Of a DNA stretch of 64,000 nucleotides, positions 15,708 to 39,746 are shown piece by piece; position 1 is the stretch's first letter, and each line of letters opens with the position of its first letter. Position numbers and translations under genes: made by a program. The stretch is taken from the NCBI GenBank assembly GCA_016281935.1, contig JAEEJN010000059.1, forward strand, positions 11,493 through 75,492. The letters are read 5' to 3'. The DNA comes from Bacillota bacterium (GTDB taxonomy: Bacteria; Bacillota; Clostridia; Christensenellales; UMGS416). The notes beneath the pieces are model-generated. The model did not search any database. It saw only the letters and a list, made by a program, of their open reading frames with translations, and was not told where the DNA came from.

Positions 15708-15720
15708 ACAGACAGAACAA

Positions 15721-15757: not shown

Positions 15758-15768
15758 TAAGGCTGGTT

Positions 15769-16209: not shown

Positions 16210-17658
16210 ATGAGCAAAGTCTTCGAACCCACCTTCGAATCCCTTTACCGGTACCGCTGTCCGGAATGGTTCAGGGACGCCAAATTCGGCATCTGGAGCC
16301 ACTGGGGCCCGCAAAGCGTACCCATGTACGGCGACTGGTATGCCCGCAACATGTATGTGGAGGGAAGTCCGCAGTATCTCTATCACATCCGCCACTACGG
16401 CCATCCGTCGGAATTCGGGTACAAGGATCTTGTCCAACTCTGGCACGCAGAGAATTTCGATCCCGAAGGACTCATGGATCTGTATTATCGGTCCGGCGCC
16501 CGTTACTTCATGTCCCAGGCGACCCACCATGACCATTTCTTCAATTATGCGTCCAGGATCAACCGTTTCAATTCCGTGGACGTCGGGCCGCACAAGGACA
16601 TCTGCGGTCTCTGGCAGAAAGCTGCCGCGAAATACGGGCTCCCCTTCGGCATGAGCGAACACCTCGGCGCTTCCTTCTCCTGGTGGACCGTCAATAAGCT
16701 GGCAGACAAAGAAGGCCCATACAAAGGCGTACCCTACGACGGGAACGATCCGGCCTACCGTGATTTCTATCATAACGACTTCGAACACCTGGACGACCTG
16801 AAGACTGTCGGGCACGCTCCCTGGTATACAGCCAATGCGAAGTATCACGCCTACTGGCTCTCCGCCGTGAAAGAGATGATCGACCTCTATCATCCCGACC
16901 TGCTGTACAGCGACGGAGGACTGCCCTTTGCCGAACTGGGGAAAGCCCCGACGGACGATCCGCTCTACAGAGCCGGTCTGGAATTTCTCGCCTACTATTA
17001 CAACGACGGCGCCCGGATCCACGGGGAAGACTCCGTCGTCTACCTGCAGAAGGACCGCCGGCCCGAATGCAGCCGCATCGGGACGCTGGACGTGGAGAAA
17101 TCCCAGCTGACTGACATCTCTCCGGAGCCCTGGCATACGGACACCTGCATCGGCAACTGGTTCTATGACGTGCGCCAGAAATACAAATCCCCCGCACACA
17201 TCGTCGAGATGCTGGTAGACATCGTCGCCAAGAACGGGAACATGCTCCTGAACGTCCTCCAGAAACCCGACGGCACGATCGACGCCCAGGCACAGTACAT
17301 CCTGGAACACATCGGCGCCTGGTTTGCAGTCAACGCGGAGGGCATCTACGGCACGCGGCCCTGGCGCGTCGCTGCGGAAGGCACGAGCCGGGTGGATCCC
17401 GCCGGCTTCAAGGAAGCCAAAGTAGACTGGATGCCCGGCGATTACCGCTTCACCTGCAAGGGCAGCAGCGTATACGCTTTCATGATGGCTCCCTGTGAAG
17501 GCGAAGCCGTGCTCCGTTCCTTCACGGAACGCGTGAAGGGCGTGGAGCTTCTGGGATTCGGGCACTGCGAGTTCGCACAGCCCTTCGGCGCTTTGAACGT
17601 GAAGCTCCCCGCCCGTCTTCCCAGCGAATTCGTGAACTGTCTGAAGATCACCCTGTGA
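16210..17658 (+). CDS. Alpha-L-fucosidase (GH29)
   Basis: 482 aa. N-terminal GH29 blocks PEWFRDAKFGIWSHWGP and GARYFMSQATHHD. AAGGAGG RBS. Confidence 0.85.
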   Translation: MSKVFEPTFESLYRYRCPEWFRDAKFGIWSHWGPQSVPMYGDWYARNMYVEGSPQYLYHIRHYGHPSEFGYKDLVQLWHAENFDPEGLMDLYYRSGARYFMSQATHHDHFFNYASRINRFNSVDVGPHKDICGLWQKAAAKYGLPFGMSEHLGASFSWWTVNKLADKEGPYKGVPYDGNDPAYRDFYHNDFEHLDDLKTVGHAPWYTANAKYHAYWLSAVKEMIDLYHPDLLYSDGGLPFAELGKAPTDDPLYRAGLEFLAYYYNDGARIHGEDSVVYLQKDRRPECSRIGTLDVEKSQLTDISPEPWHTDTCIGNWFYDVRQKYKSPAHIVEMLVDIVAKNGNMLLNVLQKPDGTIDAQAQYILEHIGAWFAVNAEGIYGTRPWRVAAEGTSRVDPAGFKEAKVDWMPGDYRFTCKGSSVYAFMMAPCEGEAVLRSFTERVKGVELLGFGHCEFAQPFGALNVKLPARLPSEFVNCLKITL

Positions 17659-17686
17659 CGGTCTGAAGGAAAAGGAGAAACAGATC

Positions 17687-18634
17687 ATGAGTGAAAACAG
17701 GATCGTACGTCACGCCCCCGGCGAACTGATTGATTTCGAGACCCTCTTCGTGGAGAACGCAGCCTTCAAGGACGGCGTCCCGAAGAAGACAGGCCGCATG
17801 GAACGCGTGGACTATATCAGCGACGTCTACGAAGACGGCGTCGCCTATCCCAAATACTGCAACGTCTATCTGCCCTGGTGCTACGATCCGGAGGACAAGG
17901 AGCGTCGTTACAACGTCCTGTATTATCAGCACGGCAACACCTGTGATCCCGAGATTTTTGCGGGAGAGAACAGGCGTCTCTTCGACCTGCTCTTCGACGA
18001 CGGAACGATCGAACCCTGCATCATCGTGTCGACGACCTACTACTTCGACGTCACGAAAGACGTGGAAGAGCGGAAGCGCACGGGCGGCGTGCCCGCAGGC
18101 GACGGAGGATGGCCCGGCGTGAAGCCGAACTTCTGGCGCGAGATCGTGGAAAAGACCATCCCTGCCGTCGAAACGCGCTACAACACGTATCTGACGGATC
18201 CGACCCCCGAGGGCATCCGGGCGACGAGAGATCACCGTGCCTTTTCGGGCTATTCCCGCGGCAGCGTGTTCACATGGCGCATGTTCCATCATGCCCTTCC
18301 CTATTTCCGCTGGTTCGCGCCGATGAGCTGTCATACGACGGCCGGAAAGCCCATCCGCGAGCCGTATACAAAAGAGGAGATCCTCGCTTACCTGCAGGAA
18401 CCCATCCGTGAGAATCCCGGTCTTCCCTTCTTCATCTTCGCGTCGAACGGAGGTCCCCGGGACGTGGCTCAGATGACGGAACAGATGAAATATATCCCGA
18501 GCGCGGAAGGCTTCTCCTACGGCCGGGATCCGAAGGTCAACAACATCTGCTTCTCCATCTCGGATTTCCCGCATACGGATCTGCTCGTGCCGTACTACTA
18601 CTACAATTCGCTTCAGGTCCTGTTCCGGGAATAA
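17687..18634 (+). CDS. Putative esterase (alpha/beta hydrolase, esterase-D/enterochelin-esterase-like)
   Basis: 315 aa with nucleophile elbow GYSRGS. Co-oriented 29 nt after the fucosidase gene. Confidence 0.65.
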   Translation: MSENRIVRHAPGELIDFETLFVENAAFKDGVPKKTGRMERVDYISDVYEDGVAYPKYCNVYLPWCYDPEDKERRYNVLYYQHGNTCDPEIFAGENRRLFDLLFDDGTIEPCIIVSTTYYFDVTKDVEERKRTGGVPAGDGGWPGVKPNFWREIVEKTIPAVETRYNTYLTDPTPEGIRATRDHRAFSGYSRGSVFTWRMFHHALPYFRWFAPMSCHTTAGKPIREPYTKEEILAYLQEPIRENPGLPFFIFASNGGPRDVAQMTEQMKYIPSAEGFSYGRDPKVNNICFSISDFPHTDLLVPYYYYNSLQVLFRE

Positions 18635-18671
18635 GGTCCCTGACAGTGATCGGACACAGGAGGAACGGCGG

Positions 18672-19184
18672 ATGAAAACAAAGCGCGTGACGGTCCTTCC
18701 CTACGATCCCCTTTGGGAGCAGCGCTTCGCTGAGATCAGATGCGAGCTGCTGGACGCGCTCGGTCCGCTGGCGCTTGCCGTCGAGCACGTCGGGAGCACG
18801 TCCGTGCGCGGTCTTTCCGCGAAGCCCGTCATCGATATCGACGTCGTCATCCGGGACACAGGTCTCCTGGCCGACGTGATCTCCGCTCTGAAGACGATCG
18901 GATACGAATACGAAGGCGATCTCGGCATCCCCGGACGGGAGGCGTTCCGCTACGAGGACAAAAGCCATCTCATGAAGCATCATCTCTACGTCTGTCCCCG
19001 GGATTCCGCCGAACTGAAACGTCACCTCGCCTTCAGGGACTATCTGCGCTCCCATCCGGAAACGGCCCGTGAATACGGACGGATCAAGGAGGAAGGCGCG
19101 GCCCTGTATCCTGACGACATCGACGGCTATATCCGTTACAAATCCCCCTTCATCGAAAGGGTCTACAAAGAGATCGGTCTCTGA
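18672..19184 (+). CDS. GrpB-family protein
   Basis: 170 aa. Blocks HVGSTSVRGLSAKPVIDIDV and HHLYVC are typical of GrpB/UPF0157. Confidence 0.8.
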   Translation: MKTKRVTVLPYDPLWEQRFAEIRCELLDALGPLALAVEHVGSTSVRGLSAKPVIDIDVVIRDTGLLADVISALKTIGYEYEGDLGIPGREAFRYEDKSHLMKHHLYVCPRDSAELKRHLAFRDYLRSHPETAREYGRIKEEGAALYPDDIDGYIRYKSPFIERVYKEIGL

Positions 19185-19264
19185 CCGTCCCGCCTCCGGT
19201 CCGCAGGTTTTTCCCGGTCCCGGTATACGGCAGGAAACAAAAACTTATTTCAGGAGGTACCAGC

Positions 19265-20296
19265 ATGTTCCGTATGTATTCGGACGCAGTGGATCCCTCG
19301 AAGGTCCCGCAGCGGATCCTGTCCACCGGAGACGTCATGCCCGGGATCGGGCTCGGGACTTTCGGATCCGACAAATACGGTCCCGCGGAAATAGCGGAGG
19401 CCGTACGGGGAGCGCTCCGTTCCGGCTATCGTCTCATCGACTGCGCAGCCTGTTACGGCAACGAGGATGCGATCGGTCCCGTGTTCCGGGAAGCTTTCTC
19501 GGAAGGACTGGACCGGAAAGATCTGTTCGTCATTTCCAAAGTCTGGAACGACGCGCACAGCCCCGAGGCCGTCGCGGCTTCCTGCCGCAGGAGCCTGCGG
19601 GATCTGGGCCTCGATTACTTCGATGCCTATCTCGTCCACTGGCCTTTCCCGAACTATCATGCCCCGGGATGCGACGGAGACGCGCGCAATCCCGATTCCC
19701 GCCCCTATATCCACGAGGAGTTCATGGAGACCTGGGGCGCCGTGGAACAGCTCGTCCGGGAAGGCCTCGTGCGCAACCCCGGCGTCAGCAACGTGACGAT
19801 CCCCAAACTGAAGCTCATCCTTCGGGACGCTTCGGTCCGGCCCGTCCTGAACGAGATGGAACTGCATCCCAGCTTCCAGCAGGGAGAGCTCTTCCAGTTC
19901 ACCCTGGATCAGGGTATCCAGCCCGTGGGATACTGCCCCCTGGGCTCTCCCTCCCGCCCGGAACGCGACCGTTCGGAAGACGACGTGAACGACATGGAGA
20001 TGCCGGCCCTCAGAAAGATCGCGGAGCGGCACGGCGTCCATCCTGCCCTCATCTGCCTCAAATGGGCGGTGCAGCGCGGACAGGTCCCGATCCCCTTCTC
20101 CGTGAAGGCGCCTCAGTATCTGTCCAACCTGAAGGCCGTCACGGAGGATCCGCTGACTGCGGAGGAACTGAACGATCTGCGCGGATGCGACCGCAACGCG
20201 CGCATGATCAAAGGCCAGGTCTTCCTCTGGCCTGGCGCGAAGTCCTGGCTGGATCTCTGGGACGCGGACGGCCGGATCCCCGGGTGGGAAGGATAA
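19265..20296 (+). CDS. Aldo/keto reductase
   Basis: 343 aa. Blocks IDCAACYGNE, SKVWN and LVHWP are AKR catalytic-tetrad context. Confidence 0.85.
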   Translation: MFRMYSDAVDPSKVPQRILSTGDVMPGIGLGTFGSDKYGPAEIAEAVRGALRSGYRLIDCAACYGNEDAIGPVFREAFSEGLDRKDLFVISKVWNDAHSPEAVAASCRRSLRDLGLDYFDAYLVHWPFPNYHAPGCDGDARNPDSRPYIHEEFMETWGAVEQLVREGLVRNPGVSNVTIPKLKLILRDASVRPVLNEMELHPSFQQGELFQFTLDQGIQPVGYCPLGSPSRPERDRSEDDVNDMEMPALRKIAERHGVHPALICLKWAVQRGQVPIPFSVKAPQYLSNLKAVTEDPLTAEELNDLRGCDRNARMIKGQVFLWPGAKSWLDLWDADGRIPGWEG

Positions 20297-20301
20297 CGCT
20301 G

Positions 20302-20805
20302 ATGCCGGCAGAAGACAAAGTCACGTGCGCCGGCTGCGGAAAAACGTTCGACCCGTCGGACGGAGGCCGCTACGATCATGCGCTCCGCGGATTCCTGTGC
20401 CCGAAGTGCGTGGAGATGACGGACAGCCTGCTGACGCCTGAGGACAAAGCTCTCGTACAGGCTGTCGGGGCTTCGGATCCCTCGCCTTCCATCGGATGGA
20501 CGATCGTCAAGGCCGCAGTCGGAGGGCTGTTCTTCGCGGTGGCCTTCGAGATGGACAGTCTCCTGGAGACCCTTCTCGCTCAGCTTCACGCACTTGTTTT
20601 CTTTCTGTGGGCAGTATGGCCCTGGGCCCGTCTGGCCCTGCGGAGAGAAAGAGCGAAAACAGCTTTGGAAAAAGCTCTTGAAGCCGGACGCACTCAGATG
20701 AAAGTGATGCCCGGGATTCGGCCTGAAACCCGGTTCTGCCCGCACTGCGGCAGTCCGGCAAAAGGGCGTTTCTGCGAACACTGCGGATTCCCTCTGCCCC
20801 GCTGA
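20302..20805 (+). CDS. Zinc-ribbon membrane protein, unknown function
   Basis: In-frame ATG at 20302 inside a long shadow ORF. CxxC...CxxC at the N-terminus, two TM helices, and C-terminal CPHCG...CEHCG. 167 aa. Confidence 0.55.
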   Translation: MPAEDKVTCAGCGKTFDPSDGGRYDHALRGFLCPKCVEMTDSLLTPEDKALVQAVGASDPSPSIGWTIVKAAVGGLFFAVAFEMDSLLETLLAQLHALVFFLWAVWPWARLALRRERAKTALEKALEAGRTQMKVMPGIRPETRFCPHCGSPAKGRFCEHCGFPLPR

Positions 20806-20846
20806 TTTTCTTCTCGGAGCCGGCAGCGAATCAGAAAACAGACAAA

Positions 20847-20880
20847 AGCGACGGAACACGGTTCCGCCGCTTTTCTTTTA
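20847..20880 (+). terminator. Terminator after zinc-ribbon gene
   Basis: GCGACGGAAC-ACG-GTTCCGCCGC followed by TTTTCTTTT. Confidence 0.55.
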
Positions 20881-20896
20881 TCCGGATCAGATCTGA

Positions 20897-20926
20897 AATA
20901 AAAGCACCGGGCTCAGAGCCCGGTGC
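20897..20926 (-). terminator. Terminator of the CotH-VTC-DUF4956 operon
   Basis: Minus strand: GCACCGGGCTC-TGA-GCCCGGTGC followed by TTTTATTT. Confidence 0.6.
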
Positions 20927-20940
20927 GGGATATGCGGTCA

Positions 20941-21633
20941 TCAGGCGGCATAATCGCCCTGATAGGAGATGAGCGTCGCGTCGTACACGCCCTCGATGCG
21001 GAGGAAATCGTTCACGAGGTTGGTGTTCTCACCCGTGAGTCGGAGTTCGATCGTCAGCTCGACGCCGTTCTGCGTCACGGCCTTGCTCTTGAGGCGGGCG
21101 GGACGGGGCAGACGGGAGATCATATGGTTCACGGCGTCAGCGCTCGCGAAGTCGTGGCGGACGATGAGCAGATAGGCAGCGTTGCCCTTGCCGCCGATCA
21201 GGAACATGATGTACAGGAACACGCCGATGATGAGGCTGCCGAGGATCACGTAGATATAGAAGGAAGTGCCCGCGCCGATGCAGATGCCGGCCGCAATCGC
21301 CCAGAACATGTACACCGTATCCATGGGGTCTTTGACAGCCGTACGGAAACGGACGATGGACAGGGCGCCGACCATGCCCAGAGACAGGGTCAGGTTGGAC
21401 GTGATGCAGCGGATGATGAGCGTCGTCACCATGATGAGCATGACGAGGGAGATGTTGAAGGAACGGGTATACATGACGCCGTTATAGGTGCGCTTGTATA
21501 CGATGAAGATCAGCATCCCGATGACGAATGCCAGAAGAAGTGCGAGGAGCAGATCTCCGATGTTCAGAGAGTTCGCTGCGACGGTCGTCGTGTCCTTCAC
21601 GATGTCCTTGATGGTAGTGGTGTCGAAAAACAT
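20941..21633 (-). CDS. DUF4956-family membrane protein (copy 1)
   Basis: Start moved to ATG 21633 (AAGGAGGAAACATCC upstream; the track start is a TTG inside the RBS). TM helices plus conserved SIVRFRT motif. 230 aa. Confidence 0.75.
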   Translation of the reverse strand: MFFDTTTIKDIVKDTTTVAANSLNIGDLLLALLLAFVIGMLIFIVYKRTYNGVMYTRSFNISLVMLIMVTTLIIRCITSNLTLSLGMVGALSIVRFRTAVKDPMDTVYMFWAIAAGICIGAGTSFYIYVILGSLIIGVFLYIMFLIGGKGNAAYLLIVRHDFASADAVNHMISRLPRPARLKSKAVTQNGVELTIELRLTGENTNLVNDFLRIEGVYDATLISYQGDYAA

Positions 21634-21654
21634 GGATGTTTCCTCCTTCAAGCC

Positions 21655-22335
21655 TCAGTGGAACCTGCGGCAAAGACTGTATTTGGATATGGCCGAACGC
21701 TGGCCGTTCACTGTGTTCAGGATGCCCTGGATATGGGGCGGCAGGATGTTGTCATACTTGACTTCCAGGATCATCTGTCCGGGCTCCAGGACCGGTACGG
21801 GAGCTGACCGTCCCGAAAAGAGATCGTGGGAAAACAGTCCCGTATGCAGATCCTTGTCAAAAGTGATCCGCACGTTCCCCACCGGATAGACGTAGGCTTC
21901 GCGGAAATAATCCACGATGACGACGGGCCTCAGGACCTTGGCGCGCATCTGCGCGTAGAACCCGTCCAGTACGGGGCTCTCGCCCAGAGGGATGCGCGTC
22001 CAGTCGCCGGACAGGATATCGTCCGTCAGATCCCTGGACAGGGCGCAGGACGCTTTGGCGGTCATCTGGGAGAACTTCATCTTGTTCTCCAGGTGGATGG
22101 GCGAATCCTTCAGGTTGTAAATCCGGATCCGGTATTTCTGCCTGTCCTGGACGCCGTCCATCTTCTCCCACATGGCGGAATTGTTGATGTCGTCAAAGTA
22201 GAGGCTTCGGATGTGATAGCCCCTGCTCTGCTTCAGGGAATGCTCGTCCATGGGCATGGCCGCCATCAGCTTGTCCCGAAGCACCAGGTACTCTCCGTAG
22301 CTGATGAAATACTTGACTTCGTGTCGCAGCTGCAT
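21655..22335 (-). CDS. VTC-domain (polyphosphate-polymerase-like, CYTH/TTM fold) protein (copy 1)
   Basis: Start moved to ATG 22335 (MQLRHEVKYFI is the typical VTC N-terminal E-x-K-Y). Begins 1 nt after the CotH stop. 226 aa. Confidence 0.75.
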   Translation of the reverse strand: MQLRHEVKYFISYGEYLVLRDKLMAAMPMDEHSLKQSRGYHIRSLYFDDINNSAMWEKMDGVQDRQKYRIRIYNLKDSPIHLENKMKFSQMTAKASCALSRDLTDDILSGDWTRIPLGESPVLDGFYAQMRAKVLRPVVIVDYFREAYVYPVGNVRITFDKDLHTGLFSHDLFSGRSAPVPVLEPGQMILEVKYDNILPPHIQGILNTVNGQRSAISKYSLCRRFH

Positions 22336-22336
22336 G

Positions 22337-25300
22337 TCAGTAGTCTCCGAATATCTCGCTGATGAGCGAAGCTCCCACGTGCAGATCCTGCTGCACGTCC
22401 TCGATGAAATAATCCCTCCGGGTGCGGGCAAAGGTCCGGATGGATTCCACGTTCGCCAGCCACCCCTTGTAGCTCAGGGTCACCATCGTTCCGCCTTCAC
22501 GGTCGCAGGGGCTCCAGCGGTTTCTGTCGCGTTCCATCGAGGAATCGATCTGTCCCGCGACTTCATTCACCATGCCGATGAGCGATTCCTCGGAATAGAC
22601 CGTGTTCGTGATGTAGGCGCAGGTCTCCAGGAAGAGCTGTTTGAACTCCGGATTCTTCAGGAGCGCGATGATGATGTCCGTATCGAATCCGTTGCCCACG
22701 CCGTGACCTCTTGGATCGATGTATTCTTCCGTATAGTTCTTCTGAGCGTTCTGACGAAGCAGCGCCCAGTCCGTATCGTACAGGATCCAGCGCCAGCGTC
22801 CGTCGTACTCCTCACTCATCCAGAACTTGATGTTGCCTGTATCGGTGTTCGTCGTGTACATCTCTGTCGCGACGTACTGGGCATAGTTCTTCACGTCCAT
22901 GTGAGCCTTGACCCACTCATAGTTCGAACTGTTGGACAGATCGTGCTCCTTGCAGTAATTCAGGAGTTCCAGATAGGACGCGTTGCTTCCGTATTTGACT
23001 TCGGAGCGGCTGCGTCCGTTGCCGACGAGCAGATTGACGGAGGATTTGCTCACTCCGTAATGATCCTCGAAATAGCTCGCATTGATCTTTTCCTGCAGGA
23101 AGTAGACGCCCCAGTATTCTCCGTTGATGAAGACGATGCAGGGACGGGATGCCTGGACATCCAGATCGGTGTACTGCGCCGCAAGCTTGGAAATGACGAC
23201 GTCACGGATCATGGACATGTGCCATTCGGAAGCGCCCGTGCGCAGGATAAAGGAATCGTAGCTCGTGTTGGCGAGATCCGGGAAGATCTGATAGCGGAAC
23301 CTCTCGTCCCCCCATACGGGACGGGACATGCAGGCGAAGCTCTTCTTGTCCTCATATCGGGAAAACGCGCCGAAGATCCGGAGGCCGAATCCCGTGGAGA
23401 GCCCGACGGTGCCGTCCGTTTCCAGAAGCTCGATATTGGCTTCCAGTTCCCGGTTGCTCATGAAGTTGGACCCGTTGTAGGGATAGGTCTGGTCGGGACC
23501 GCGCATATACAGGCCGTCCATTTCGTCGAACATCTCTTTGGGATCGACCGAGATGCTGACGAGGGGAAGATCGAAGGGCTCGTTGATGAAGATCGTCTCG
23601 GTCGTGACTTCACTCGTCACGAAGCCGTCGCGAAAGGAAGCCGCGCGGACGACCGTGTTCTTGTCGATGGAGATGGGCCCGCCGTAGACGGGAGAATCGG
23701 CACCAGGCTTGCTGCCGTCCAGCGTGTAGCGGACGGTCGTATTCTCAGGCACGAAGATCTCGAGCTGCTGGGCGGACACATAGTTGCCCGTAGCGAGCGA
23801 AAAAGCCGGCTGATCGCACTTGGCGCCGGCATAGCTCCCATTGTTGTCCGAACGGGGCGAAGGAGACATGAGATAGGCGAAGCTGCGCTGATCCTTAGGC
23901 CTTCCGTAGCTCATGGTCTCAGGGATCCGGTCCACCATGCAAGAATCCAGGATCCTGCCTTCCGCGTCAGAGATGATGAGGACGTCGCCGCCGGAGACTT
24001 TGAGCTTGAAATTCGTATGGAGTTCTCCGGCCGAAGAATCCCCGCTGCCGTCGGTGAAGACGAGGAGTTTCTGTCCGGGAGCGATGGAAACGGACGGAAA
24101 GGTCCACAGGCCGATATGCTTGGCGCTGTTGGTCATCCCATAGCCCTTCAGATTCAGCGTATCCGCCGAGTTGTTCGTGAGTTCCACCCAGGGCACGGGA
24201 TTGCCGGCTTCATCCGTCACGTACTCGTCCGCGATCGTCTTGACCTCGTTGATGAGCACGCCGGGGGCCCTGCGGGCATTCGCCTCGGTCTGGAATGCCT
24301 GGTACCCGTCGTCCGTGTTCGGATATCCGGGCGTGGGCTTGGTGAATGTTTTGAACATGTCGCGGGACACGCGTCCGTAAGAATTGTCGGACTGGATCCT
24401 CTCCACGGTCACGCTGTCCACGATCTGGCCTTTCGGATTGGAGAGCACCACGGATTCCTTGAGGGAATTCAGGCCGAACTGGGCCACGATCTCCCCTTCC
24501 ACGCCGTAGCCTTCCTTGTTGCAGAAGATGAGAAGATAACCGTTAGGCTCGATGACGGTCTCGCCGAACACGTATTTGCGCAGGTCGCTCTCGCTGTCGG
24601 AAAGTCCCCAGTCCTTCAGGTCTATGGGCTGGTCCGTCATGTTATGCAGTTCGACCCAGTCGTAGTAATCGCCGCTGCGGGTCGAGCAGGTGATCTTGTT
24701 GGACGTCATGACTTCCCAGATGAGTACGTCGGGATTCTCGACGCGGCGGGTCGCCATAAACTGGTTCCAGCCGTCCTGGGTGTTCGGATAACCGGGCGTG
24801 TACTGCTCCGTCATGTACCACTCGTTGGACGCCGTGTTCAGGGCATACGAAGTATCAGGCGCCATGGCCGGGACGTCCACGGCGGACAGCACGTCGCCGT
24901 AGCTGTTCAGGACGTAGAGCGCTTCGCCGGAAGCCTTCATGCGGAAAGGCGCAAAGCCTTCGACGCCGGCGTATTCGGGACCTCCGCAGAAGATGACGAC
25001 GGACTGTCCGGGAGCGAGCACAGAGTCGCCGAAGGTATAGCGCAGGGGCTTCTCCAGGGAATCCGTGATCATGAACCCTCTGAGTTCCAGAGGATCCGCA
25101 CCGGTATTCGTCACTTCGAACCAGTCGTAGGTCTCACCGTTGTCGCTCACGAGAGCGGAACGGTTGGAGGCCATGATCTCCGTGATCACGGGGATATGTG
25201 CGGCCGCGGCCGCATCCGTATCCGTTGCCGCCGTTTCCCTGTTCTCGCGTACGATCCGGTTCACGAGAAGCACAGCTACGATCAGGAGCGCCACGATGAT

Positions 25301-25429
25301 CAGAAGATCCCAGAATTTTCCGGTACGGCCGTTCCCGCCCGAATTTCTGGTCTGTGCAGGCGCAGCACTTCTGGAGGAAGAACTGCCGCGGCTTCTGCGG
25401 CTGCTTCGGGTGTCTGTATCTCTAGCCAA
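22337..25429 (-). CDS. Membrane-anchored CotH-family kinase with three lamin-tail domains and a chitobiase/hexosaminidase C-terminal-like domain
   Basis: 1030 aa. Arg/Ser-rich N-tail, one TM helix (FWDLLIIVALLIVAVLLV), and 3 repeats of the LTD pattern (ItEim..n....D.....yDWfEl.N......L.g..lsDs). Then TVRYTLDGSKP and a CotH core. TTG start 8 nt after GAGGAGG. Confidence 0.8.
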   Translation of the reverse strand: MARDTDTRSSRRSRGSSSSRSAAPAQTRNSGGNGRTGKFWDLLIIVALLIVAVLLVNRIVRENRETAATDTDAAAAAHIPVITEIMASNRSALVSDNGETYDWFEVTNTGADPLELRGFMITDSLEKPLRYTFGDSVLAPGQSVVIFCGGPEYAGVEGFAPFRMKASGEALYVLNSYGDVLSAVDVPAMAPDTSYALNTASNEWYMTEQYTPGYPNTQDGWNQFMATRRVENPDVLIWEVMTSNKITCSTRSGDYYDWVELHNMTDQPIDLKDWGLSDSESDLRKYVFGETVIEPNGYLLIFCNKEGYGVEGEIVAQFGLNSLKESVVLSNPKGQIVDSVTVERIQSDNSYGRVSRDMFKTFTKPTPGYPNTDDGYQAFQTEANARRAPGVLINEVKTIADEYVTDEAGNPVPWVELTNNSADTLNLKGYGMTNSAKHIGLWTFPSVSIAPGQKLLVFTDGSGDSSAGELHTNFKLKVSGGDVLIISDAEGRILDSCMVDRIPETMSYGRPKDQRSFAYLMSPSPRSDNNGSYAGAKCDQPAFSLATGNYVSAQQLEIFVPENTTVRYTLDGSKPGADSPVYGGPISIDKNTVVRAASFRDGFVTSEVTTETIFINEPFDLPLVSISVDPKEMFDEMDGLYMRGPDQTYPYNGSNFMSNRELEANIELLETDGTVGLSTGFGLRIFGAFSRYEDKKSFACMSRPVWGDERFRYQIFPDLANTSYDSFILRTGASEWHMSMIRDVVISKLAAQYTDLDVQASRPCIVFINGEYWGVYFLQEKINASYFEDHYGVSKSSVNLLVGNGRSRSEVKYGSNASYLELLNYCKEHDLSNSSNYEWVKAHMDVKNYAQYVATEMYTTNTDTGNIKFWMSEEYDGRWRWILYDTDWALLRQNAQKNYTEEYIDPRGHGVGNGFDTDIIIALLKNPEFKQLFLETCAYITNTVYSEESLIGMVNEVAGQIDSSMERDRNRWSPCDREGGTMVTLSYKGWLANVESIRTFARTRRDYFIEDVQQDLHVGASLISEIFGDY

Positions 25430-25728
25430 GAAGAGTACCTCCTCAGGTTCCTGTCAGGATGAAAGGCCTTGTCTGCGCGGTCCCGGACACGTTCCGATCC
25501 CTTACGCCGGCCTGATATCTCATTCTATTATTATAGTATGAAACGCATTATCTTTCAACCTGCAGAAGCGGCTGTGGGCACCTTTCGGACAAAAACCGCT
25601 GTTGGCTGCATCTTTCAGTGTTCCTTTTATCGCTTGCGGACCTGGCGGGACGGGAATACAATAAGATCGGTCACGCACAAGAGCTCACGAAAGGAAAAGG
25701 ACGCGCAAGGCGCGTCCCCGGTGGGAAC

Positions 25729-27030
25729 ATGAAAACAGGTAAATACGCACTCGTCATCTCCGAGGACGCCATGGTCTATGAGGACCTGGAAATCCTCCGC
25801 AGGCTCCCCGCCTTCGGATCCGTATGGAACGACGCCGCCGTCGTCAGAGAGATGCGTTCCGTCTACCCCACGATCACCTATCCGGCCCACACGACCATGC
25901 GTACGGGCTGCTGGCCCGACCGCCACGGCGTCATCAACAACGAGCAGACGATCCTGGGCGAAGTCTCCTCCAAGTGGGAGCATTTCAACGACATCGTCCG
26001 CGTTCCGGACATTTTCGACGCCGCCAAGGCCGCCGGGCTCACGACCTGTTCGGTGTTCTGGCCGGTCACGGGGAACCACCCCCATGTCGACTGGCTCATC
26101 AACGAGTACTGGCCGCAGGAACCGGACGGGGATCCCGTGGAGTGTTTCGCCGAATCCGGCACGGATCCGGACACGCTGGAGACAGTTCGCCGGCATATCC
26201 ACATGGTCCTCGGGCACCAGAGGCAGCATCCGTTTTTCGAAAAATTCGTCTTCGCCTGCACGGACGACCTGATCCGTGAACACCGTCCCAACCTGACCAT
26301 GGTCCATCCCGCCAACATTGACGCGTACCGGCACGAGACCGGCATCTTCTCCGACAAAGTGATCCACGGACTGCACGAGTGTGACGTCTGGCTTGCCGAT
26401 ATGCTGCAGGCTCTCGACGTCGCTGGGATCAGAGAGGAAACGAACGTTTTCGTCGTCAGCGATCACGGGCAGATGGACTTTGCAGGCAGTGTCCATCCCA
26501 ACGTCCTTCTCGCCCGCGCGGGGCTCATCGACGTGGATCCCGACGGCACTCTGAAAGGCTACCGGGCCATCTGCAAGTCCATGGGCGCTTCCTGTCAGGT
26601 CTGGCTCAGCGATCCCGCGGACAGGGCCCTGCGCGAAGAGACGTTCAGCGTGCTGGACGCCGCCCGCAGGGAAGGCGTCTACGGGATCGAGAGGGTCTTT
26701 ACCGAAGAGGAAACGGCCCGTCTCGAGCATCTTTCCGGCGGATTCTCCTTCGTTCTGGAAACGGACGGCCGTTATTCGTTCGGCAACCGTTTCACCGGAC
26801 CCGTTCTTTCCGCGGCGGATACGTCCGACTACAAGACCGCACACGGGACGCACGGCTATCTCCCGGAAAAGGGGCCTCAGCCGACACTTCTCGCCTTCGG
26901 TCCCGGCATCCGTCCCGGTGCCCGTGCCGACCGCGCCGGCATCGTAGACATCGCGCCGACGGTGGCCGCCAGTCTGGGGCTCTCCATGCCGGATACCGAC
27001 GGCCGCGTGATCGAAGAGATCCTGCGCTGA
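25729..27030 (+). CDS. Nucleotide pyrophosphatase/phosphodiesterase (alkaline-phosphatase superfamily)
   Basis: Start moved to ATG 25729 (MKTGKYALVISEDAM). Blocks PTITYPAHTTMRTG (nucleophile Thr context), SDHGQ and THGY. 433 aa. Confidence 0.75.
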   Translation: MKTGKYALVISEDAMVYEDLEILRRLPAFGSVWNDAAVVREMRSVYPTITYPAHTTMRTGCWPDRHGVINNEQTILGEVSSKWEHFNDIVRVPDIFDAAKAAGLTTCSVFWPVTGNHPHVDWLINEYWPQEPDGDPVECFAESGTDPDTLETVRRHIHMVLGHQRQHPFFEKFVFACTDDLIREHRPNLTMVHPANIDAYRHETGIFSDKVIHGLHECDVWLADMLQALDVAGIREETNVFVVSDHGQMDFAGSVHPNVLLARAGLIDVDPDGTLKGYRAICKSMGASCQVWLSDPADRALREETFSVLDAARREGVYGIERVFTEEETARLEHLSGGFSFVLETDGRYSFGNRFTGPVLSAADTSDYKTAHGTHGYLPEKGPQPTLLAFGPGIRPGARADRAGIVDIAPTVAASLGLSMPDTDGRVIEEILR

Positions 27031-27047
27031 TACGCACCCCATAACCC

Positions 27048-27090
27048 GGGGAAAAGCCCGGCCGGCCGGGCTTTTCCCCCTGTATTCTTT
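27048..27090 (+). terminator. Terminator after phosphodiesterase gene
   Basis: GGGGAAAAGCCCGG-CCGG-CCGGGCTTTTCCCC, a long GC hairpin with a weak T tail. Confidence 0.6.
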
Positions 27091-27184
27091 CAGTTCCCGC
27101 CCTTGCGGAGCGCCGGGGCCGGGTGTACAATGAGGGCGTCAACGTCCGAGTCCGGCATCCGTTCCGGACAGCAAAGGAGTCATC

Positions 27185-28024
27185 ATGTCATTCGTATCCA
27201 GCAGAGAACTTCTTCTCCGTGCCAGAGCAGAGCACTTCGCCGTAGGCGCTTTCAACGTGGAAAACATGGAGATGGTCCAGGCCGTGCTCGAAGCCGCGTC
27301 CGAGCTTCGTTCCCCCGTGCTCATCCAGACGACGCCCGGAACGCTCAATTATGCGCCTCCCCGCGTTTTCGCCGGGATGGTCTCCCGCATGGCGGCCGCC
27401 GCCCCGATCCCCGCAGCCCTGCATCTGGATCACGGCGATTCCTTCGAACGGGCCAGGATCTGCGCGGAGGAAGGCTACACCTCCCTCATGATCGACGGAT
27501 CCCTTCTTCCTTTCGAAGAGAACATCGCCCTGACGAAGAGCGTCATCGAGATGGCCGGGGACATCCCGGTCGAAGCCGAACTCGGGACGGTGGGCGGCAA
27601 GGAAGACACCCATGCCGCCGGCATCTCCTACACGGATCCCGCCCAGGCGGAGGAATTCGTCGCCCGTACGGGCGTGTTCTCGCTGGCTCCCGCCATCGGC
27701 ACGGCGCACGGCGTCTATAAATCCGAGCCCAAACTGGATCTCGCCCGTCTGGAGGAGATCGCGGCGCGGGTGCCCAATCCGCTGGTCCTTCACGGGACGA
27801 GCGGCGTGCCCGTCGATACCGTGAAAGCCTGCATCGAGAGAGGCATCAGCAAAGTCAATTATGCGACGGATCTGCGCATCGCCTTCACGAAGGCCGTGGA
27901 AGCCTGGCTTGCGGAGCATCCCGGGACCATCGATCCCAAAAAATACCTGGGTGCCGCAAGGCAGGCCGTCAAAGCCCGCGTCGAGGAACTCATCCGTCTC
28001 TGCGGCAGCGAAGGGAAGGCCTGA
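27185..28024 (+). CDS. Class II ketose-bisphosphate aldolase (tagatose/fructose-1,6-bisphosphate aldolase family)
   Basis: 279 aa. Blocks FAVGAFNVENME, ALHLDHG and LVLHGTSG. Confidence 0.85.
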   Translation: MSFVSSRELLLRARAEHFAVGAFNVENMEMVQAVLEAASELRSPVLIQTTPGTLNYAPPRVFAGMVSRMAAAAPIPAALHLDHGDSFERARICAEEGYTSLMIDGSLLPFEENIALTKSVIEMAGDIPVEAELGTVGGKEDTHAAGISYTDPAQAEEFVARTGVFSLAPAIGTAHGVYKSEPKLDLARLEEIAARVPNPLVLHGTSGVPVDTVKACIERGISKVNYATDLRIAFTKAVEAWLAEHPGTIDPKKYLGAARQAVKARVEELIRLCGSEGKA

Positions 28025-28025
28025 C

Positions 28026-29516
28026 GTGGAAACGCTGCTCCTGGGGATCGATATCGGCACGTCCGCCTGCAAGACCGCCCTATTCCGTGAAAACGGCAGC
28101 GTCGCCGCGTCTGCGGAAGTCTCCTATCCTGTGACCTATCCCGCCCCCGGACAGGCCGAACAGCATCCGGACGTCTGGTGGGACGCCGCGGTACGCTCAG
28201 TCCGTGAAGTCCTGGAAAAAAGCGGCGCGGATCCCGCCGGGATCGCAGGCGTCGGAGTGGACGGCCAGAGCTGGGCCATGGCTGCCGTGGACAGGGACGG
28301 GAATGCGCTCCTTCCCTCTCCCATCTGGACCGATCTGCGCGCAGCGGACGTCTGCTCCGAACTGGTGAAACTGGCCGGAAAAGACCGGATCTTCTCCGTT
28401 TCCGGGAATCCCGTCATGCCCGGATATACGCTTCCCAAAGTCCTCTGGATGAAAAAGGAACATCCCGAACTGTACCGGGAGACCGACAAGGTCCTTCAGT
28501 CCAACGGCTATATCGTCTTCCGTCTTACCGGTGAAGCCACCCAGGATCTTTCCCAGGGATACGGCTGGCACTGTTTCGATCCCGCCCGCGGGACCTGGGA
28601 CAGGGCCCTCGCGGAAGACCTGGGCCTCCGGGTCTCCCTTCTTCCCGATATCCTGCCCTGCAGCGGGATCGCAGGGACCGTCTCGGCCGAAGCCGCGTCC
28701 CTCACGGGGCTCGCGGAAGGCACGCCCGTCGTCGCGGGCGGTCTGGACGCTGCCTGCGGGACACTGGGCGTCGGCGTCGTGAACGCCGGCCAGACCCAGG
28801 AGCAGGGCGGTCAGGCCGGAGGCATGAGCATCTGCCTCGACGTCTGCCGCTCCCATCCGGATCTCATCCTCTCCCCCCACGTCGTCCCGGACCGCTGGCT
28901 CCTCCAGGGCGGTACGACGGGAGGAGGCGGAGCGCTCCGCTGGTTCAGGGAAGAGCTCTGTCCCGGGCTTTCCTTCGAAGCCATGAGCGATCTTGCTGAA
29001 AAGGCGGAACCGGGTTCCGGCGGCGTACGCTTCCTTCCCTTCATGGCTGGTGAACGGAGCCCGTTGTGGGATCCGGACGCGAAAGCCGTGTTTTACGGAC
29101 TCGGGTTCTCCGCATCCCTTCCTCAGATGATCCGTTCCGTCATGGAAGGCACCGCTTTTGCCCTGCGTCACAATCTGGAGACGGCCGAGTCGGCAGGCGC
29201 CGTGGCGGATGTCCTGCGGTCCATGGGAGGCGCCTGCAGGAGCAGCGTATGGATGCAGATCAAGGCGGACGTCACAGGGCACGTCCTGGAAGTCCCGCAG
29301 GCAGACACGGCCACTGCCTGGGGCGCCGCCATCCTTGCGGGCCTCGGGACAGGCGTCTGGAAGGACGCGGAGGAGGCCGTACGCGGCATCCGGATCCTGA
29401 AGACCTATGAACCCGACGCACGCCGCCGGGAGATCTATGAGAACGCCTACGGGGAATACAGGCGGCTGACCGCCGCCCTCGGACCCATTTTTCATGAAAA
29501 GAGGAGATCAAGATGA
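28026..29516 (+). CDS. FGGY-family carbohydrate kinase (xylulokinase-like)
   Basis: GTG 28026 lies 1 nt after the aldolase stop (GGGAAGG RBS). LGIDIGTSACK N-terminal ATPase motif and FGGY C-terminal blocks. 496 aa. Confidence 0.8.
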   Translation: METLLLGIDIGTSACKTALFRENGSVAASAEVSYPVTYPAPGQAEQHPDVWWDAAVRSVREVLEKSGADPAGIAGVGVDGQSWAMAAVDRDGNALLPSPIWTDLRAADVCSELVKLAGKDRIFSVSGNPVMPGYTLPKVLWMKKEHPELYRETDKVLQSNGYIVFRLTGEATQDLSQGYGWHCFDPARGTWDRALAEDLGLRVSLLPDILPCSGIAGTVSAEAASLTGLAEGTPVVAGGLDAACGTLGVGVVNAGQTQEQGGQAGGMSICLDVCRSHPDLILSPHVVPDRWLLQGGTTGGGGALRWFREELCPGLSFEAMSDLAEKAEPGSGGVRFLPFMAGERSPLWDPDAKAVFYGLGFSASLPQMIRSVMEGTAFALRHNLETAESAGAVADVLRSMGGACRSSVWMQIKADVTGHVLEVPQADTATAWGAAILAGLGTGVWKDAEEAVRGIRILKTYEPDARRREIYENAYGEYRRLTAALGPIFHEKRRSR

Positions 29517-30559
29517 AAGCAGCCGTACTCCACGCCAACCGGGATCTTCGCTATGAAGACTGGCCCACACCCGTCTGCGGCCCCGGACAGGTCATGGTCC
29601 GCGTCCGTGCGACAGGCATCTGCGGGAGCGACGTGCCCCGCGTCCTGCACAACGGCGCCCATTTCTACCCCATCGTCCTGGGTCACGAATTCGCCGGCGA
29701 CGTCGTTGAGACCGGCGAAGGCGTGACGAAAGTCCGGACCGGCGACACCGTGAGCGGCGCTCCGCTCCTTCCCTGCCGTGCCTGTCCCGACTGCCAGAAG
29801 GGCAACTACTCCCTCTGCCGTCACTACAGCTTCATCGGAAGCCGGGAACAGGGCAGTTTCGCGGAATACGTCGTGATCCCCGAAGCGAACGCCGTAAAGT
29901 ATGATCCCTCCGTCCCCTATGAACAGGCGGCCATGTTCGAGCCTTCGACGGTGGCGCTCCACGGGATCCTGCAGGGACAGTATTCCGGCGGAGGCAGGAC
30001 GGCGGTCGTGGGATGCGGAACGATCGGGATCTTCACCGCCCAGTGGGCGAAGATCTTCGGCGCGAGACAGCTCGCTGTCTTCGACGTGGACGAGAGCCGT
30101 CTGGCCCTCGCAAGACGCATGGGGGCGACGGATACCGTCAACACCCGTGAGGAAGGCTGGCTGGAGAAAGCCATGGACCTGACGGGAGGTGCCGGTTTCG
30201 ATCACGTGTTCGAGACCGCAGGCAATCCCGTGACGGACAGGATCTGCTTCGAGATCGCGGGCAACAAGAGCCACGTCACCTTCATCGGCACGCCGCACAC
30301 GGATCTGACCTTTACCCCCAGAGAATGGGAGAACATGAACCGCAAGGAATTCTACCTGACCGGCAGCTGGATGAGTTACTCCGCTCCCTTCCCGGGGAAA
30401 GAATGGGAACTCACCTCCCACTGCTTCGGCACAGGAGAACTGAAGTTCGATCCGGGATTCATCTTCCGGAAATATCCTCTCAGCCGGGCTTGGGAAGCGT
30501 TCCGTCTCTATGACGATCCCGCTTCCGTGCACGGCAAGGTCATGCTGGTCAATGACTGA
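29513..30559 (+). CDS. Zinc-dependent polyol/polyol-phosphate dehydrogenase (MDR family, GatD/sorbitol dehydrogenase-like)
   Basis: 348 aa. GHEFAG and the structural Zn site CRACPDCQKGNYSLC. ATGA overlap with the kinase gene. Confidence 0.85.
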   Translation: MKAAVLHANRDLRYEDWPTPVCGPGQVMVRVRATGICGSDVPRVLHNGAHFYPIVLGHEFAGDVVETGEGVTKVRTGDTVSGAPLLPCRACPDCQKGNYSLCRHYSFIGSREQGSFAEYVVIPEANAVKYDPSVPYEQAAMFEPSTVALHGILQGQYSGGGRTAVVGCGTIGIFTAQWAKIFGARQLAVFDVDESRLALARRMGATDTVNTREEGWLEKAMDLTGGAGFDHVFETAGNPVTDRICFEIAGNKSHVTFIGTPHTDLTFTPREWENMNRKEFYLTGSWMSYSAPFPGKEWELTSHCFGTGELKFDPGFIFRKYPLSRAWEAFRLYDDPASVHGKVMLVND

Positions 30560-30568
30560 GGCGTTCCC

Positions 30569-31504: not shown

Positions 31505-31588
31505 ACCTGCGCGGGCATTTCCTTTTTCCCCGAAATATGGTATAATCAGTCGTTCCTGCATCACCGCGCGACGAAGAAAGGAGGATCC

Positions 31589-38209: not shown

Positions 38210-38881
38210 TTACAGCTGACCCGTCTGCTCACTGTAGGGAAGAACGGCGATCTCCAGATTACCGTTCATCGTACGGAGCTCGTCGATGAAGGCCTTCTCT
38301 TCTTTGGGATCCTTCATACGGATCCGGAAGGAAAGGCGGAACATGGAACCCATCCCTGTCGTCTTGACACCCACGTTCTCCGAGAAGGAAAGGTAGCGGG
38401 CAAAAGTATCATCGAATACGTCGGAATACTCCAGGGACTCCGGGATCGTCACACGCAGGAGCCTGTCCCTGGACGCAGTACGGTCCTCGAACAGATGCAG
38501 GGACGAAAGCAGTACGTACAGCAGCGCAAGGCTCAGAAGGATTGCGACCCCATACCCCACATAACCCATTCCGAACGCGATGCCGGAGCCCATGGCGATG
38601 AGGATCGCCGCGATCTCCTCCGCGGAACCCGGAGCGGAACGGAACCGGATGAGTCCGAACGCTCCTCCGATCGCAACGCCCGCCCCGATGTTTCCGTTCA
38701 CAAAGGTGATGACCGACGATACAATGAAAGGCAGCAGAGAGACGACGATGAAAAACCTCCTTGAGGAGCGCACACGCAGGGACATGATCCAAGCATACAG
38801 CACGCCCGCCCCGATGCTCACTCCCGACATCAGGAAGAACTGGGCCGCCGTCACCGTCGCGGAATAGATGGAATCGAACAT
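38210..38881 (-). CDS. DUF4956-family membrane protein (copy 2)
   Basis: Start moved to ATG 38881 (MFDSIYS; AAGGAAGGTGA RBS). Conserved LIRFRS motif, as in copy 1. 223 aa. Confidence 0.75.
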   Translation of the reverse strand: MFDSIYSATVTAAQFFLMSGVSIGAGVLYAWIMSLRVRSSRRFFIVVSLLPFIVSSVITFVNGNIGAGVAIGGAFGLIRFRSAPGSAEEIAAILIAMGSGIAFGMGYVGYGVAILLSLALLYVLLSSLHLFEDRTASRDRLLRVTIPESLEYSDVFDDTFARYLSFSENVGVKTTGMGSMFRLSFRIRMKDPKEEKAFIDELRTMNGNLEIAVLPYSEQTGQL

Positions 38882-38897: not shown

Positions 38898-39746
38898 TCA
38901 TTGAGCCTTCGCCATCTGCCGGCGATAGGCTTCTCCGTATTTGGAAAGACTGCTTTTGCGCATCTTCCCTTCCGACAGGATGCCGGCCAGCCACAGCGGC
39001 ATGGCATCCTGGATCTTGATCTCCAGGATCGTCTGACCGGGTTCAAGGAGGCTCTTGCCCTCCATGGAAACGTCCAAAGCCAGATCTTCTGCCCGGTAAC
39101 GGGGATTCTCGTCGATCGTGAGTCTGAGATCGCCTCCGGGTTCGTAATAGGCCGTCCGGTCATAGATGATGAGGCATGAGGGAACGAGGTCCCTGTAGAA
39201 ATCACGGCAGTAACGGATCTCACGGCCGATCTGGCCTTCGGAGCAGATGTCGTTTCTCCCCGAGAAGAACGTTTCCACCCTGGGTATCGTGGACTGCACC
39301 CGTCTTTTGTATACGATCCCGTATGCCTTGCGCTTGAGTTCCAGGTATACGGGAGATTCTTTTGTCGCGAGACCGTAACTGCGAAGACGGATCTTTTCCT
39401 TGAAGTCAGGCTTCTCGACGGACATCCGGATCAAGCGGCGGTCCGGAGTGTCATAATACAGAGAAGCTATGGAAGTCTTTCCGTATGCATCTTCTTCCAT
39501 ATGGCCCCGGAGCCTTTCCCGCAGCAAAACAGTCTGGTCCGCGCTGAGGACGTATTTGACTTCATAGCGCTGCATGACCGTGACTGCCTGAGCGGTCCGG
39601 ACTGTGACAGCAGTGTCCTCAGTCACAGGCCTTGATGTGGGACGGATGTCTTCTCCTGATGTTTCCGGCTTTCCGAAGGGCAGCGTCTGTTTTCCGCATC
39701 CGGAGAACGCTTTGCGGTCGTTATGTGCGAACAGGATATGGGTCAT
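38898..39746 (-). CDS. VTC-domain (polyphosphate-polymerase-like) protein (copy 2)
   Basis: The core begins MQRYEVKYVLS (ATG 39575). An upstream in-frame ATG at 39746 has an AAGGAG RBS, so the longer form is given. The N-terminal 57 aa are low-complexity. Confidence 0.7.
   Translation of the reverse strand: MTHILFAHNDRKAFSGCGKQTLPFGKPETSGEDIRPTSRPVTEDTAVTVRTAQAVTVMQRYEVKYVLSADQTVLLRERLRGHMEEDAYGKTSIASLYYDTPDRRLIRMSVEKPDFKEKIRLRSYGLATKESPVYLELKRKAYGIVYKRRVQSTIPRVETFFSGRNDICSEGQIGREIRYCRDFYRDLVPSCLIIYDRTAYYEPGGDLRLTIDENPRYRAEDLALDVSMEGKSLLEPGQTILEIKIQDAMPLWLAGILSEGKMRKSSLSKYGEAYRRQMAKAQ

Follow-up and report, generated by a model that had tools for sequence, protein, structure and literature searches.

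A CotH-VTC-DUF4956 operon in a Clostridia genome is part of a widespread prokaryotic module that may connect a tunnel enzyme with the cell surface

A 64,000-nt stretch of a Clostridia genome (contig JAEEJN010000059.1; this whole stretch is called the window below) carries on its minus strand three contiguous genes, which encode, in the order of transcription, a CotH-family kinase, a VTC-domain (triphosphate-tunnel) protein and a DUF4956 membrane protein. These genes form an expressed operon that is a member of a widespread prokaryotic VTC-DUF4956(-CotH) module. Within this module, VTC and DUF4956 form a near-obligate pair to which CotH may or may not be added, and both ancient classes of VTC paralogues coexist in one genome and even in this one window. 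It appears quite probable that the three proteins act as one membrane-spanning unit. An earlier note on this DNA had gone further, proposing that VTC might make polyphosphate, that DUF4956 could serve as its channel and that the exported chain might feed the CotH kinase outside the cell; parts of that proposal stand and parts do not. The operon and its signals are the following.

25530..25558, minus strand: promoter-like TTGAAA-17-TATAAT site (11/12 consensus matches; a consensus match only)
22337..25429, minus strand: CotH-family kinase gene, 1030 amino acids, TTG start, ribosome-binding site (RBS) GAGGAGG at 25445-25439
21655..22335, minus strand: VTC (triphosphate-tunnel) gene, 226 amino acids, predicted soluble product (PF09359, E 4e-38)
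20941..21633, minus strand: DUF4956 membrane protein gene, 230 amino acids counted from the ATG, RBS GAAGGAGG at 21648-21641
21343..21351, minus strand: invariant R95-F96-R97 of DUF4956, at the predicted cytoplasmic end of helix 3
20904..20926, minus strand: intrinsic-terminator-like hairpin with T-run, 15 nt past the DUF4956 stop

The three genes are packed as tightly as had been noted earlier, since a single base separates the CotH stop codon (TGA, 22339-22337) from the VTC ATG at 22335. The distance between the VTC stop codon (TGA, 21657-21655) and the DUF4956 ATG at 21633 is 21 nt, with GAAGGAGG inside the gap, so that the earlier figure of about 20 nt is correct from stop to start and incorrect from stop to RBS. 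The promoter-like site, approximately 100 nt upstream of the cotH start, is the sole such site in 20300-25800, and the hairpin (10-bp stem, 8 GC pairs) is followed by TTTTATTT; as read from these signals, the transcription unit is cleanly bounded by a promoter-like site and a putative terminator. Transcription as an operon is supported by contigs from two digester metatranscriptome datasets. At 97-100% identity to the window, these contigs include stretches of each of the three genes and span both gene junctions, with the caveat that they are of low depth and that DNA carry-over is possible. The operon sequence is present in bovine-gut and anaerobic-digester metagenomes, the nearest named homologue comes from a Christensenellales metagenome-assembled genome, and the source assembly comprises 1.9 Mb and is 88% complete. 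Pfam profile searches identified CotH, VTC, DUF4956, lamin-tail domain (LTD) and Phosphodiest families, all as named in the earlier note, and NCBIfam holds a model for none of the three operon proteins.

How general the arrangement is was assessed in an even sample of 401 genomes (278 genera) of the phylum, to which 14 control genomes were added. VTC was found in 68 of the 401 genomes and DUF4956 likewise in 68, with 67 genomes having both (Fisher 2e-74, a statistic that ignores kinship; positives fall in 53 of the 278 genera). A DUF4956 gene lies within 1.5 kb of 76 of the 82 VTC genes, always on the same strand, and the exceptions are mostly at contig ends. Thus, the linkage that the earlier note had wished to see checked by co-occurrence and gene-neighbourhood statistics is far above chance. 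CotH is more loosely attached: of the 62 genomes with CotH, 55 have VTC as well, and a CotH gene lies within 5 kb of 49 of the 82 VTC genes, as does a VTC gene for 54 of 88 CotH genes. Conversely, 33 of the 82 VTC genes have no CotH gene within 5 kb, and CotH is missing altogether from 13 of the 68 genomes with VTC. Among the control genomes, three from tractable organisms of other phyla (B. thetaiotaomicron, C. glutamicum and M. acetivorans) contain all three families, and B. subtilis contains CotH alone.

The closest relative (77-79% identity) retains the exact three-gene operon within a different neighbourhood. In one of two near-identical closest relatives, a Joint Genome Institute metagenome contig (L008, 9387-9978), CotH and DUF4956 are intact and VTC is called as fragments of 97 and 71 amino acids, which reflects either a sequencing error or a natural loss of VTC. 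A 489-amino-acid open reading frame (ORF) of another genome (G394; L005, 4161-5630) was considered as a natural DUF4956-VTC fusion, which would have spoken for contact between the two proteins, and rejected as a frameshift artefact or pseudogene, given that the proper DUF4956 C-terminus runs on in another frame, as translation of that frame revealed. The gene directly downstream of this fusion-like ORF encodes a secreted protein of small size that has an LTD and a C-terminal anchor.

The window itself contains a second VTC-DUF4956 pair, which has no adjoining CotH gene.

38898..39575, minus strand: second VTC gene, 29% identical to the operon VTC
38210..38881, minus strand: second DUF4956 gene, with an LIRFRS motif; trkH and trkA follow on the same strand 168 nt downstream

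In the region of this pair (38210-40341, minus strand), a gene for a MarR/SarA-type regulator lies upstream, and trkH/trkA are genes of potassium uptake. The two VTC genes of the window belong to different branches of the family. In a tree built from 78 VTC sequences, two deep clades stand apart (Shimodaira-Hasegawa-like approximate likelihood ratio test, SH-aLRT, 99): one of 45 sequences, 41 of them CotH-linked, which includes the operon VTC and all seven VTCs linked to pel loci (discussed below), and one of 33 sequences, 26 of them without CotH, which includes the VTC of the second pair. On this tree, CotH linkage requires 10 changes, compared with approximately 24 when the labels are shuffled. 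The close relatives of the second pair are highly conserved (72-76% identity) and stand in operons with the order Cthe_2159 (an exported beta-helix protein), small ORF, HATPase_c protein, VTC and DUF4956, located behind a two-component system in two of the three neighbourhoods read. In the source genome, the operon seen in these relatives is split up, with Cthe_2159 and the associated two-component system encoded on a different contig.

With respect to the VTC protein, the match to PF09359 is strong and essentially full-length (131.7 bits against a cut-off of 23, E 4e-38, profile positions 2-229 of 235), and no other Pfam family, and thus not CYTH, was detected at E up to 0.01. The VTC domain alone was found, without an SPX domain or a transmembrane (TM) segment, which agrees with the soluble protein described earlier. 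When a profile was built from 20 VTC homologues, it matched yeast Vtc4 (3g3q) with E 2.4e-12; such homologue profiles were required, since single-sequence phmmer searches against the PDB returned only a marginal hit for VTC (E 0.065) and no CotH match for CotH. Nine residues that are invariant in the 20 homologues (R4, K8, R69, R71, K85, K94, R145, R156 and E191) align, in the same order, with R196, K200, R264, R266, K281, K294, R361, R373 and E426 of Vtc4; the last eight of these Vtc4 positions are catalytic or phosphate-binding residues of the tunnel, with roles reportedly worked out by Hothorn and colleagues in 2009. Every aligned tunnel residue is therefore invariant, and the refutation that the earlier note had envisaged, a VTC protein without them, did not come about. 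The AlphaFold2 model (predicted local distance difference test, pLDDT, 91.1) shows a closed beta-barrel tunnel fold that is nearest to Vtc4 among the triphosphate tunnel metalloenzymes (TTMs): the top 13 PDB matches are all Vtc4, Vtc3 or Vtc2 (best E 5e-14, TMq 0.71), followed by YgiF (2e-9) and by other TTMs such as tripolyphosphatases and archaeal TTMs (approximately 1e-7). It looks, from alignment and model together, as if VTC were a catalytically competent, soluble tunnel enzyme of the cytoplasm. Compared with the eukaryotic complex (Vtc4/Vtc3 or Vtc2/Vtc1; 3g3q, 7ytj, 8i6v), the tunnel fold and all aligned catalytic residues are shared, and in both cases the catalytic domain is tied to a membrane component, here through the near-obligate pairing. 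However, the bacterial protein is a stand-alone domain of 226 amino acids with neither SPX nor a fused TM region, its membrane partner is MgtC-like and not Vtc1/DUF202-like, and its first strand reads R-x-E-x-K, with Glu in place of the Thr of R-x-T-x-K in Vtc4. Whether VTC makes polyphosphate is, in our estimation, evenly balanced.

The DUF4956 protein matches PF16316 with E 1e-9 (37.5 bits, cut-off 30.6; 38.6 bits in a second profile search). Its core G-A-L-S-I-V-R-F-R-T is conserved, and R95-F96-R97 is invariant in 26 homologues, which bears out the polytopic protein with a (V/I)RFR(T/S) motif that had been described from the letters; the motif reads IVRFRT in the operon protein and LIRFRS in the second copy of the window. 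The AlphaFold2 model, which is of moderate confidence (pLDDT 78), places five helices in the membrane span (residues 25-146), followed by a C-terminal domain (152-223) of beta-alpha-beta-beta-alpha-beta order that resembles the MgtC C-terminal domain and ACT domains; in the PDB, it is matched best by the corresponding domain of P. aeruginosa MgtC (7qa5) and next by ACT domains. When aligned with MgtC sequences of the same phylum by hhalign, DUF4956 yields a probability of 90.7% (E 1.3e-6) over 65 columns that cover helices 3-5, with the invariant S-I-V-R-F-R-T-A-V-K-D placed opposite the conserved T-I-L-R-E-G loop of MgtC. Moreover, the MgtC hidden Markov model (HMM) matches two DUF4956 genes of other genomes (E 5e-6 and 4e-4). 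Pfam MgtC (PF02308) gave no match to the DUF4956 protein of the window at E up to 10, and canonical MgtC was not found in the source genome. Taken together, profile and model comparisons suggest that DUF4956 is a distant relative of the MgtC family and probably not a member of it. With MgtC/SapB/YhiD (PF02308; Salmonella virulence factor MgtC), it shares five helices, a C-terminal ACT-like domain and an alignable core formed by the helix-3 loop and helix 4; the relationship is a distant one only, and the invariant R-F-R and the near-constant pairing with VTC are features of DUF4956 that MgtC does not have. The idea that DUF4956 is the counterpart of the eukaryotic VTC channel thus fails as a statement of descent, and homology to Vtc1/DUF202 was ruled out because there was no profile match; the likeness to the yeast channel is limited to the role as membrane partner of a VTC domain. 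The charge pattern fits a topology with the N-terminus outside, the C-terminus inside and R-F-R at the cytoplasmic face.

The CotH protein is the largest of the three. Pfam assigns to it a CotH domain at 683-1007 (E 7e-44), three LTDs, a CHB_HEX_C_1 domain at 546-610 and Fn3_assoc, and its main parts lie as follows.

25250..25306, minus strand: TM helix (residues 42-60), hydropathy 3.02, after an Arg/Ser-rich basic tail (1-38)
24404..24736, minus strand: best-scoring lamin-tail domain (residues 232-342; PF00932, E 4.9e-40), flanked by two more LTD stretches
23600..23794, minus strand: chitobiase/hexosaminidase C-terminal-like domain (residues 546-610; PF13290, E 1e-15)
22409..23383, minus strand: CotH kinase core (residues 683-1007), with N861-x-D863 and D885

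This is the build that had been read from the translation, i.e., an Arg/Ser tail, one TM helix, three LTDs, a chitobiase-C-like domain and the kinase core, and Pfam and hydropathy agree with it. The N-terminal tail holds 9 Lys/Arg and 2 Asp/Glu, compared with 3 Lys/Arg and 4 Asp/Glu in the stretch past the helix, and by the positive-inside rule this bias predicts a protein with its N-terminus inside, its C-terminus outside and its ectodomain facing outward; the cytoplasmic placement that could have undone the earlier proposal is not what is predicted. B. cereus CotH (5jd9) is matched with E 2e-105 by a CotH profile to which sporulation-type sequences had been added; N861 and D863, at catalytic-loop positions, align with N222 and D224, and D885, at the metal-binding position, aligns with D247, all of them invariant in 22 sequences. 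The chitobiase-C-like domain has a weak match to beta-hexosaminidase 6q63, and it is probable that this domain and the LTDs bind surface polymers. Spore CotH has approximately 360 amino acids and acts inside the mother cell, where ATP is available. Compared with the Bacillus proteins (B. subtilis; B. cereus 5jd9, 5jda), the core is homologous and the catalytic N-x-D and metal-binding Asp are kept, whereas the CotH of the window is membrane-anchored, predicted to face outward and enlarged by 680 residues of binding modules, and its predicted location is not that of the spore coat. In the phylum sample, the 360-amino-acid sporulation-type CotH proteins group apart, and their genes are not next to VTC.

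A second CotH of the same genome (contig C63, 20624-29145) combines Fn3_assoc and CotH in approximately 590 amino acids with a hydrophobic N-terminus, and no VTC gene adjoins it. The surrounding locus, of the wall-polysaccharide type, encodes an ABC-2 exporter pair, a UDP-sugar epimerase/dehydratase and GT2 and GT8 transferases, a context that hints that CotH enzymes of this genome may act on glycans. Just upstream (14366-19300), genes which, from their translations only, read like a sortase-dependent pilus cluster include a TLVTCTP sortase motif, signal-peptide proteins with C-terminal anchors and a signal-peptidase-like gene.

The triad is not new to the literature. Whitfield et al. (bioRxiv 10.1101/768473) described a set of accessory genes of Gram-positive pel loci that comprises cotH, DUF4956, DUF4832 and a gene for a polyphosphate polymerase and is contiguous with pelDEADAFG in streptococci, clostridia and bifidobacteria. 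In S. intermedius (mBio 2025, PMC12345266), the corresponding proteins are SIR_1592, an MgtC-like TM protein with an ACT domain, SIR_1593, with a polyphosphate polymerase domain, and SIR_1594, a secreted CotH; the genes of this triad were knocked out, and the 1592 and 1594 mutants showed reduced Pel and aggregation. A table of the necrotic-enteritis-associated locus NELoc-2 of C. perfringens (PMC2879425) lists two VTC genes, each followed by a predicted membrane protein of 222-226 amino acids and adjoining a CotH gene. The earlier statement that the function of the module is not established therefore has to be divided: the triad is already in print with knock-outs, whereas no published assay of a bacterial VTC, DUF4956 or exported CotH was found in the literature. 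The S. intermedius paper (PMC12345266) also states that the triad arrangement is not found outside pel loci. In our sample, however, PelG lies within 12 kb in 7 of the 46 genomes with adjacent VTC and CotH (9 of 46 when contig breaks are allowed for), so that about 80-85% of the sampled triads are not at pel, and the published statement does not hold. A pel context for the operon of the window was rejected as well, since PelG is absent from the whole of the 88%-complete source genome, and there is no DUF4832 gene near the operon, whose neighbours are aldo-keto reductase, GrpB, Phosphodiest and FGGY kinase genes. Like the pel accessory set, the operon has contiguous, co-oriented cotH, VTC and DUF4956 genes and an exported CotH (here by prediction), and its VTC falls in a well-supported group of 13 sequences that holds all 7 pel-linked VTCs. 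It differs in that it is not contiguous with pelDEADAFG and has no DUF4832 nearby, and in that its CotH, with approximately 1030 amino acids, a TM anchor, three LTDs and CHB_HEX_C, is unlike the CotH plus FN3 protein of pel loci. What the window adds is a triad outside any pel locus, a second, CotH-free pair and a cleaner description of DUF4956 as MgtC-like.

The explanation that we favour, albeit tentatively and at somewhat less than an even chance as a whole, is that VTC and DUF4956 work across the membrane towards the outer CotH. VTC would be docked on DUF4956 on the cytoplasmic side of the membrane, where it would use ATP either for building a phosphate chain or for phosphoryl transfer; DUF4956 would couple this activity to the outside, by conducting the product or by signalling; and the anchored CotH would then phosphorylate a protein or glycan of the cell surface. 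Two observations favour transfer to the outside, namely that VTC is so strictly paired with a membrane protein and that exported partners recur in both clades. The individual links are of unequal strength, as passage of the product through DUF4956 seems unlikely and the use of polyphosphate as the donor of CotH very unlikely. The most ambitious version, in which bacteria and archaea have a PPK-independent, VTC-like synthase-translocase whose DUF4956 oligomer threads the chain outward for CotH-fold kinases that use polyphosphate and not ATP, with other exported partners such as Cthe_2159 proteins filling the CotH role in the paralogous class, would be a highly speculative proposal, to which we attach still less weight than to the donor role of polyphosphate by itself.

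Several observations weigh against this explanation. The Glu in R-x-E-x-K recalls the ExExK motif of hydrolytic TTMs, so that polymerase chemistry is not certain from the alignment, and the genome already encodes PPK1. DUF4956 gave no match to Vtc1/DUF202 even at E up to 10 and, as judged by the hhalign probability and the 7qa5 match, is homologous to MgtC, which acts as a regulator through protein contacts and not as a channel; to our knowledge, no transport function of MgtC has been reported, and we likewise know of no kinase of the CotH fold that uses polyphosphate. The proposed topology rests on the positive-inside rule and on a model of moderate confidence, and the low-depth metatranscriptome contigs could include DNA. 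A whole deep clade of VTC-DUF4956 pairs is mostly without CotH, which argues that supplying CotH is not the only role of the pair. To this can be added the lack of published assays already mentioned. Finally, only the mutants in DUF4956 (SIR_1592) and CotH (SIR_1594) are named as altered in S. intermedius (PMC12345266), which argues against polyphosphate as an obligatory donor of CotH.

Some of these points also fit a regulatory reading, which we regard as possible but doubtful. According to it, the MgtC-like DUF4956 would be a scaffold or regulator whose ACT-like domain, together with the bound VTC tunnel domain, senses or consumes a cytoplasmic phosphate metabolite (ATP, tripolyphosphate or polyphosphate) and relays this state through the membrane to the outward CotH or to surface-polymer synthesis, with nothing being exported. 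The relation to MgtC over helices 3-5, the MgtC HMM matches to two DUF4956 genes and the C-terminal domain, which is best matched by that of MgtC and then by ACT domains, are what such a scaffold would lead one to expect, as are the DUF4956 and CotH phenotypes in S. intermedius (PMC12345266) and the operons of the relatives of the second pair, with their HATPase_c protein and two-component system. However, a full and invariant set of catalytic tunnel residues points to an enzyme and not to a mere sensor, strict 1:1 pairing with recurrent exported partners is in keeping with export as well, and the mechanism of MgtC is itself poorly understood. It is also conceivable, although unlikely, that VTC-DUF4956 is a membrane-tethered, PPK-independent polyphosphate synthase whose product stays in the cytoplasm as a store, a cation buffer or a granule seed, in which case the link with CotH would reflect shared regulation of envelope and phosphate functions and no hand-over of product. 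The Vtc4-like residues and fold are in keeping with such a synthase, as are the many pairs without CotH, including a separate clade that is mostly CotH-free, and the position of the second pair next to trkH/trkA, potassium being a natural counter-ion of a polyanion. Nonetheless, PPK1 is already available in this genome (PPK2 is not, its sole match there being below the cut-off), and the frequent exported or surface partners, CotH here and Cthe_2159 lipoprotein-like proteins in relatives, would be left unexplained. The presence of PPK1 also led us to reject VTC as the only polyphosphate synthase of the genome.

The chemistry of VTC raises a further alternative, namely that the protein is a hydrolase or another TTM (a tripolyphosphatase, an ATPase or a cyclase-like enzyme) and that the module is unrelated to polyphosphate synthesis. 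Enzymes of this fold catalyse many reactions, the fold matches that rank next after the VTC family are to YgiF and archaeal TTMs, and the first strand keeps a Glu that Vtc4 lacks; however, Vtc4 likewise has the Arg that stands in place of the first Glu of ExExK, the 13 best fold matches are all VTC-family proteins that lead YgiF by 5 orders of magnitude in E-value, and the full-length Pfam match comes with no other family, and thus not CYTH, at E up to 0.01. We consider this alternative improbable, to about the same degree as a purely intracellular synthase. Far less credible than any of these is a functional fourth member, the divergent phosphodiesterase, which would, for example, trim nucleotides or polyphosphate.

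25618..27030, plus strand: divergent Phosphodiest (alkaline-phosphatase superfamily) gene, PF01663 with E 5e-38, likely start M38 at 25729

The earlier note was right about the layout, in which this putative nucleotide pyrophosphatase gene shares a 300-bp divergent region with the operon, and this layout is the argument for a partnership. The partnership itself could not be upheld, and the gene was rejected as a member of the module: it is absent beside the same operon in the closest relative, which has other divergent neighbours, and its product looks cytoplasmic, with neither a signal peptide nor a TM segment predicted. For these two reasons, the arrangement is probably incidental. Furthermore, the gene opens a block (25618-32536) that also encodes a sugar kinase (FGGY), a zinc alcohol dehydrogenase and a kinase of the PfkB type, and this block parts the operon from dnaB, rplI and DUF2232. 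In the relative, no more than a few genes separate these three from the operon, on its upstream side, which makes an insertion or rearrangement likely. Elsewhere in the window, a low-GC island at 12000-16000 (0.49-0.51, compared with approximately 0.59 elsewhere) carries HTH_3 and AbiEii nucleotidyltransferase toxin genes, which are a type IV toxin-antitoxin pair, and has probably been acquired horizontally.

Within the context of polyphosphate biology, VTC4 is treated as a eukaryote-only enzyme in reviews and recent papers, and a 2026 preprint (PMC13484657) describes extracellular polyphosphate that arises independently of PPK in the Bacillus cereus group; no synthase is known for it, and a VTC4 homologue is said to be lacking there. 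A conserved bacterial VTC that has all aligned catalytic residues, a near-constant membrane partner and, in most cases, an exported enzyme beside it readily suggests itself as a candidate for another way of making polyphosphate. The triad is widespread and already in print, and the window adds context and not a new kind of system. The module might explain how enzymes outside the membrane are supplied with phosphoryl groups, and export of polyphosphate to CotH, if true, would provide both energy and phosphoryl groups in a compartment free of ATP. Since the module occurs in loci for the Pel biofilm matrix and in NELoc-2 of C. perfringens, its function bears on aggregation and colonisation.

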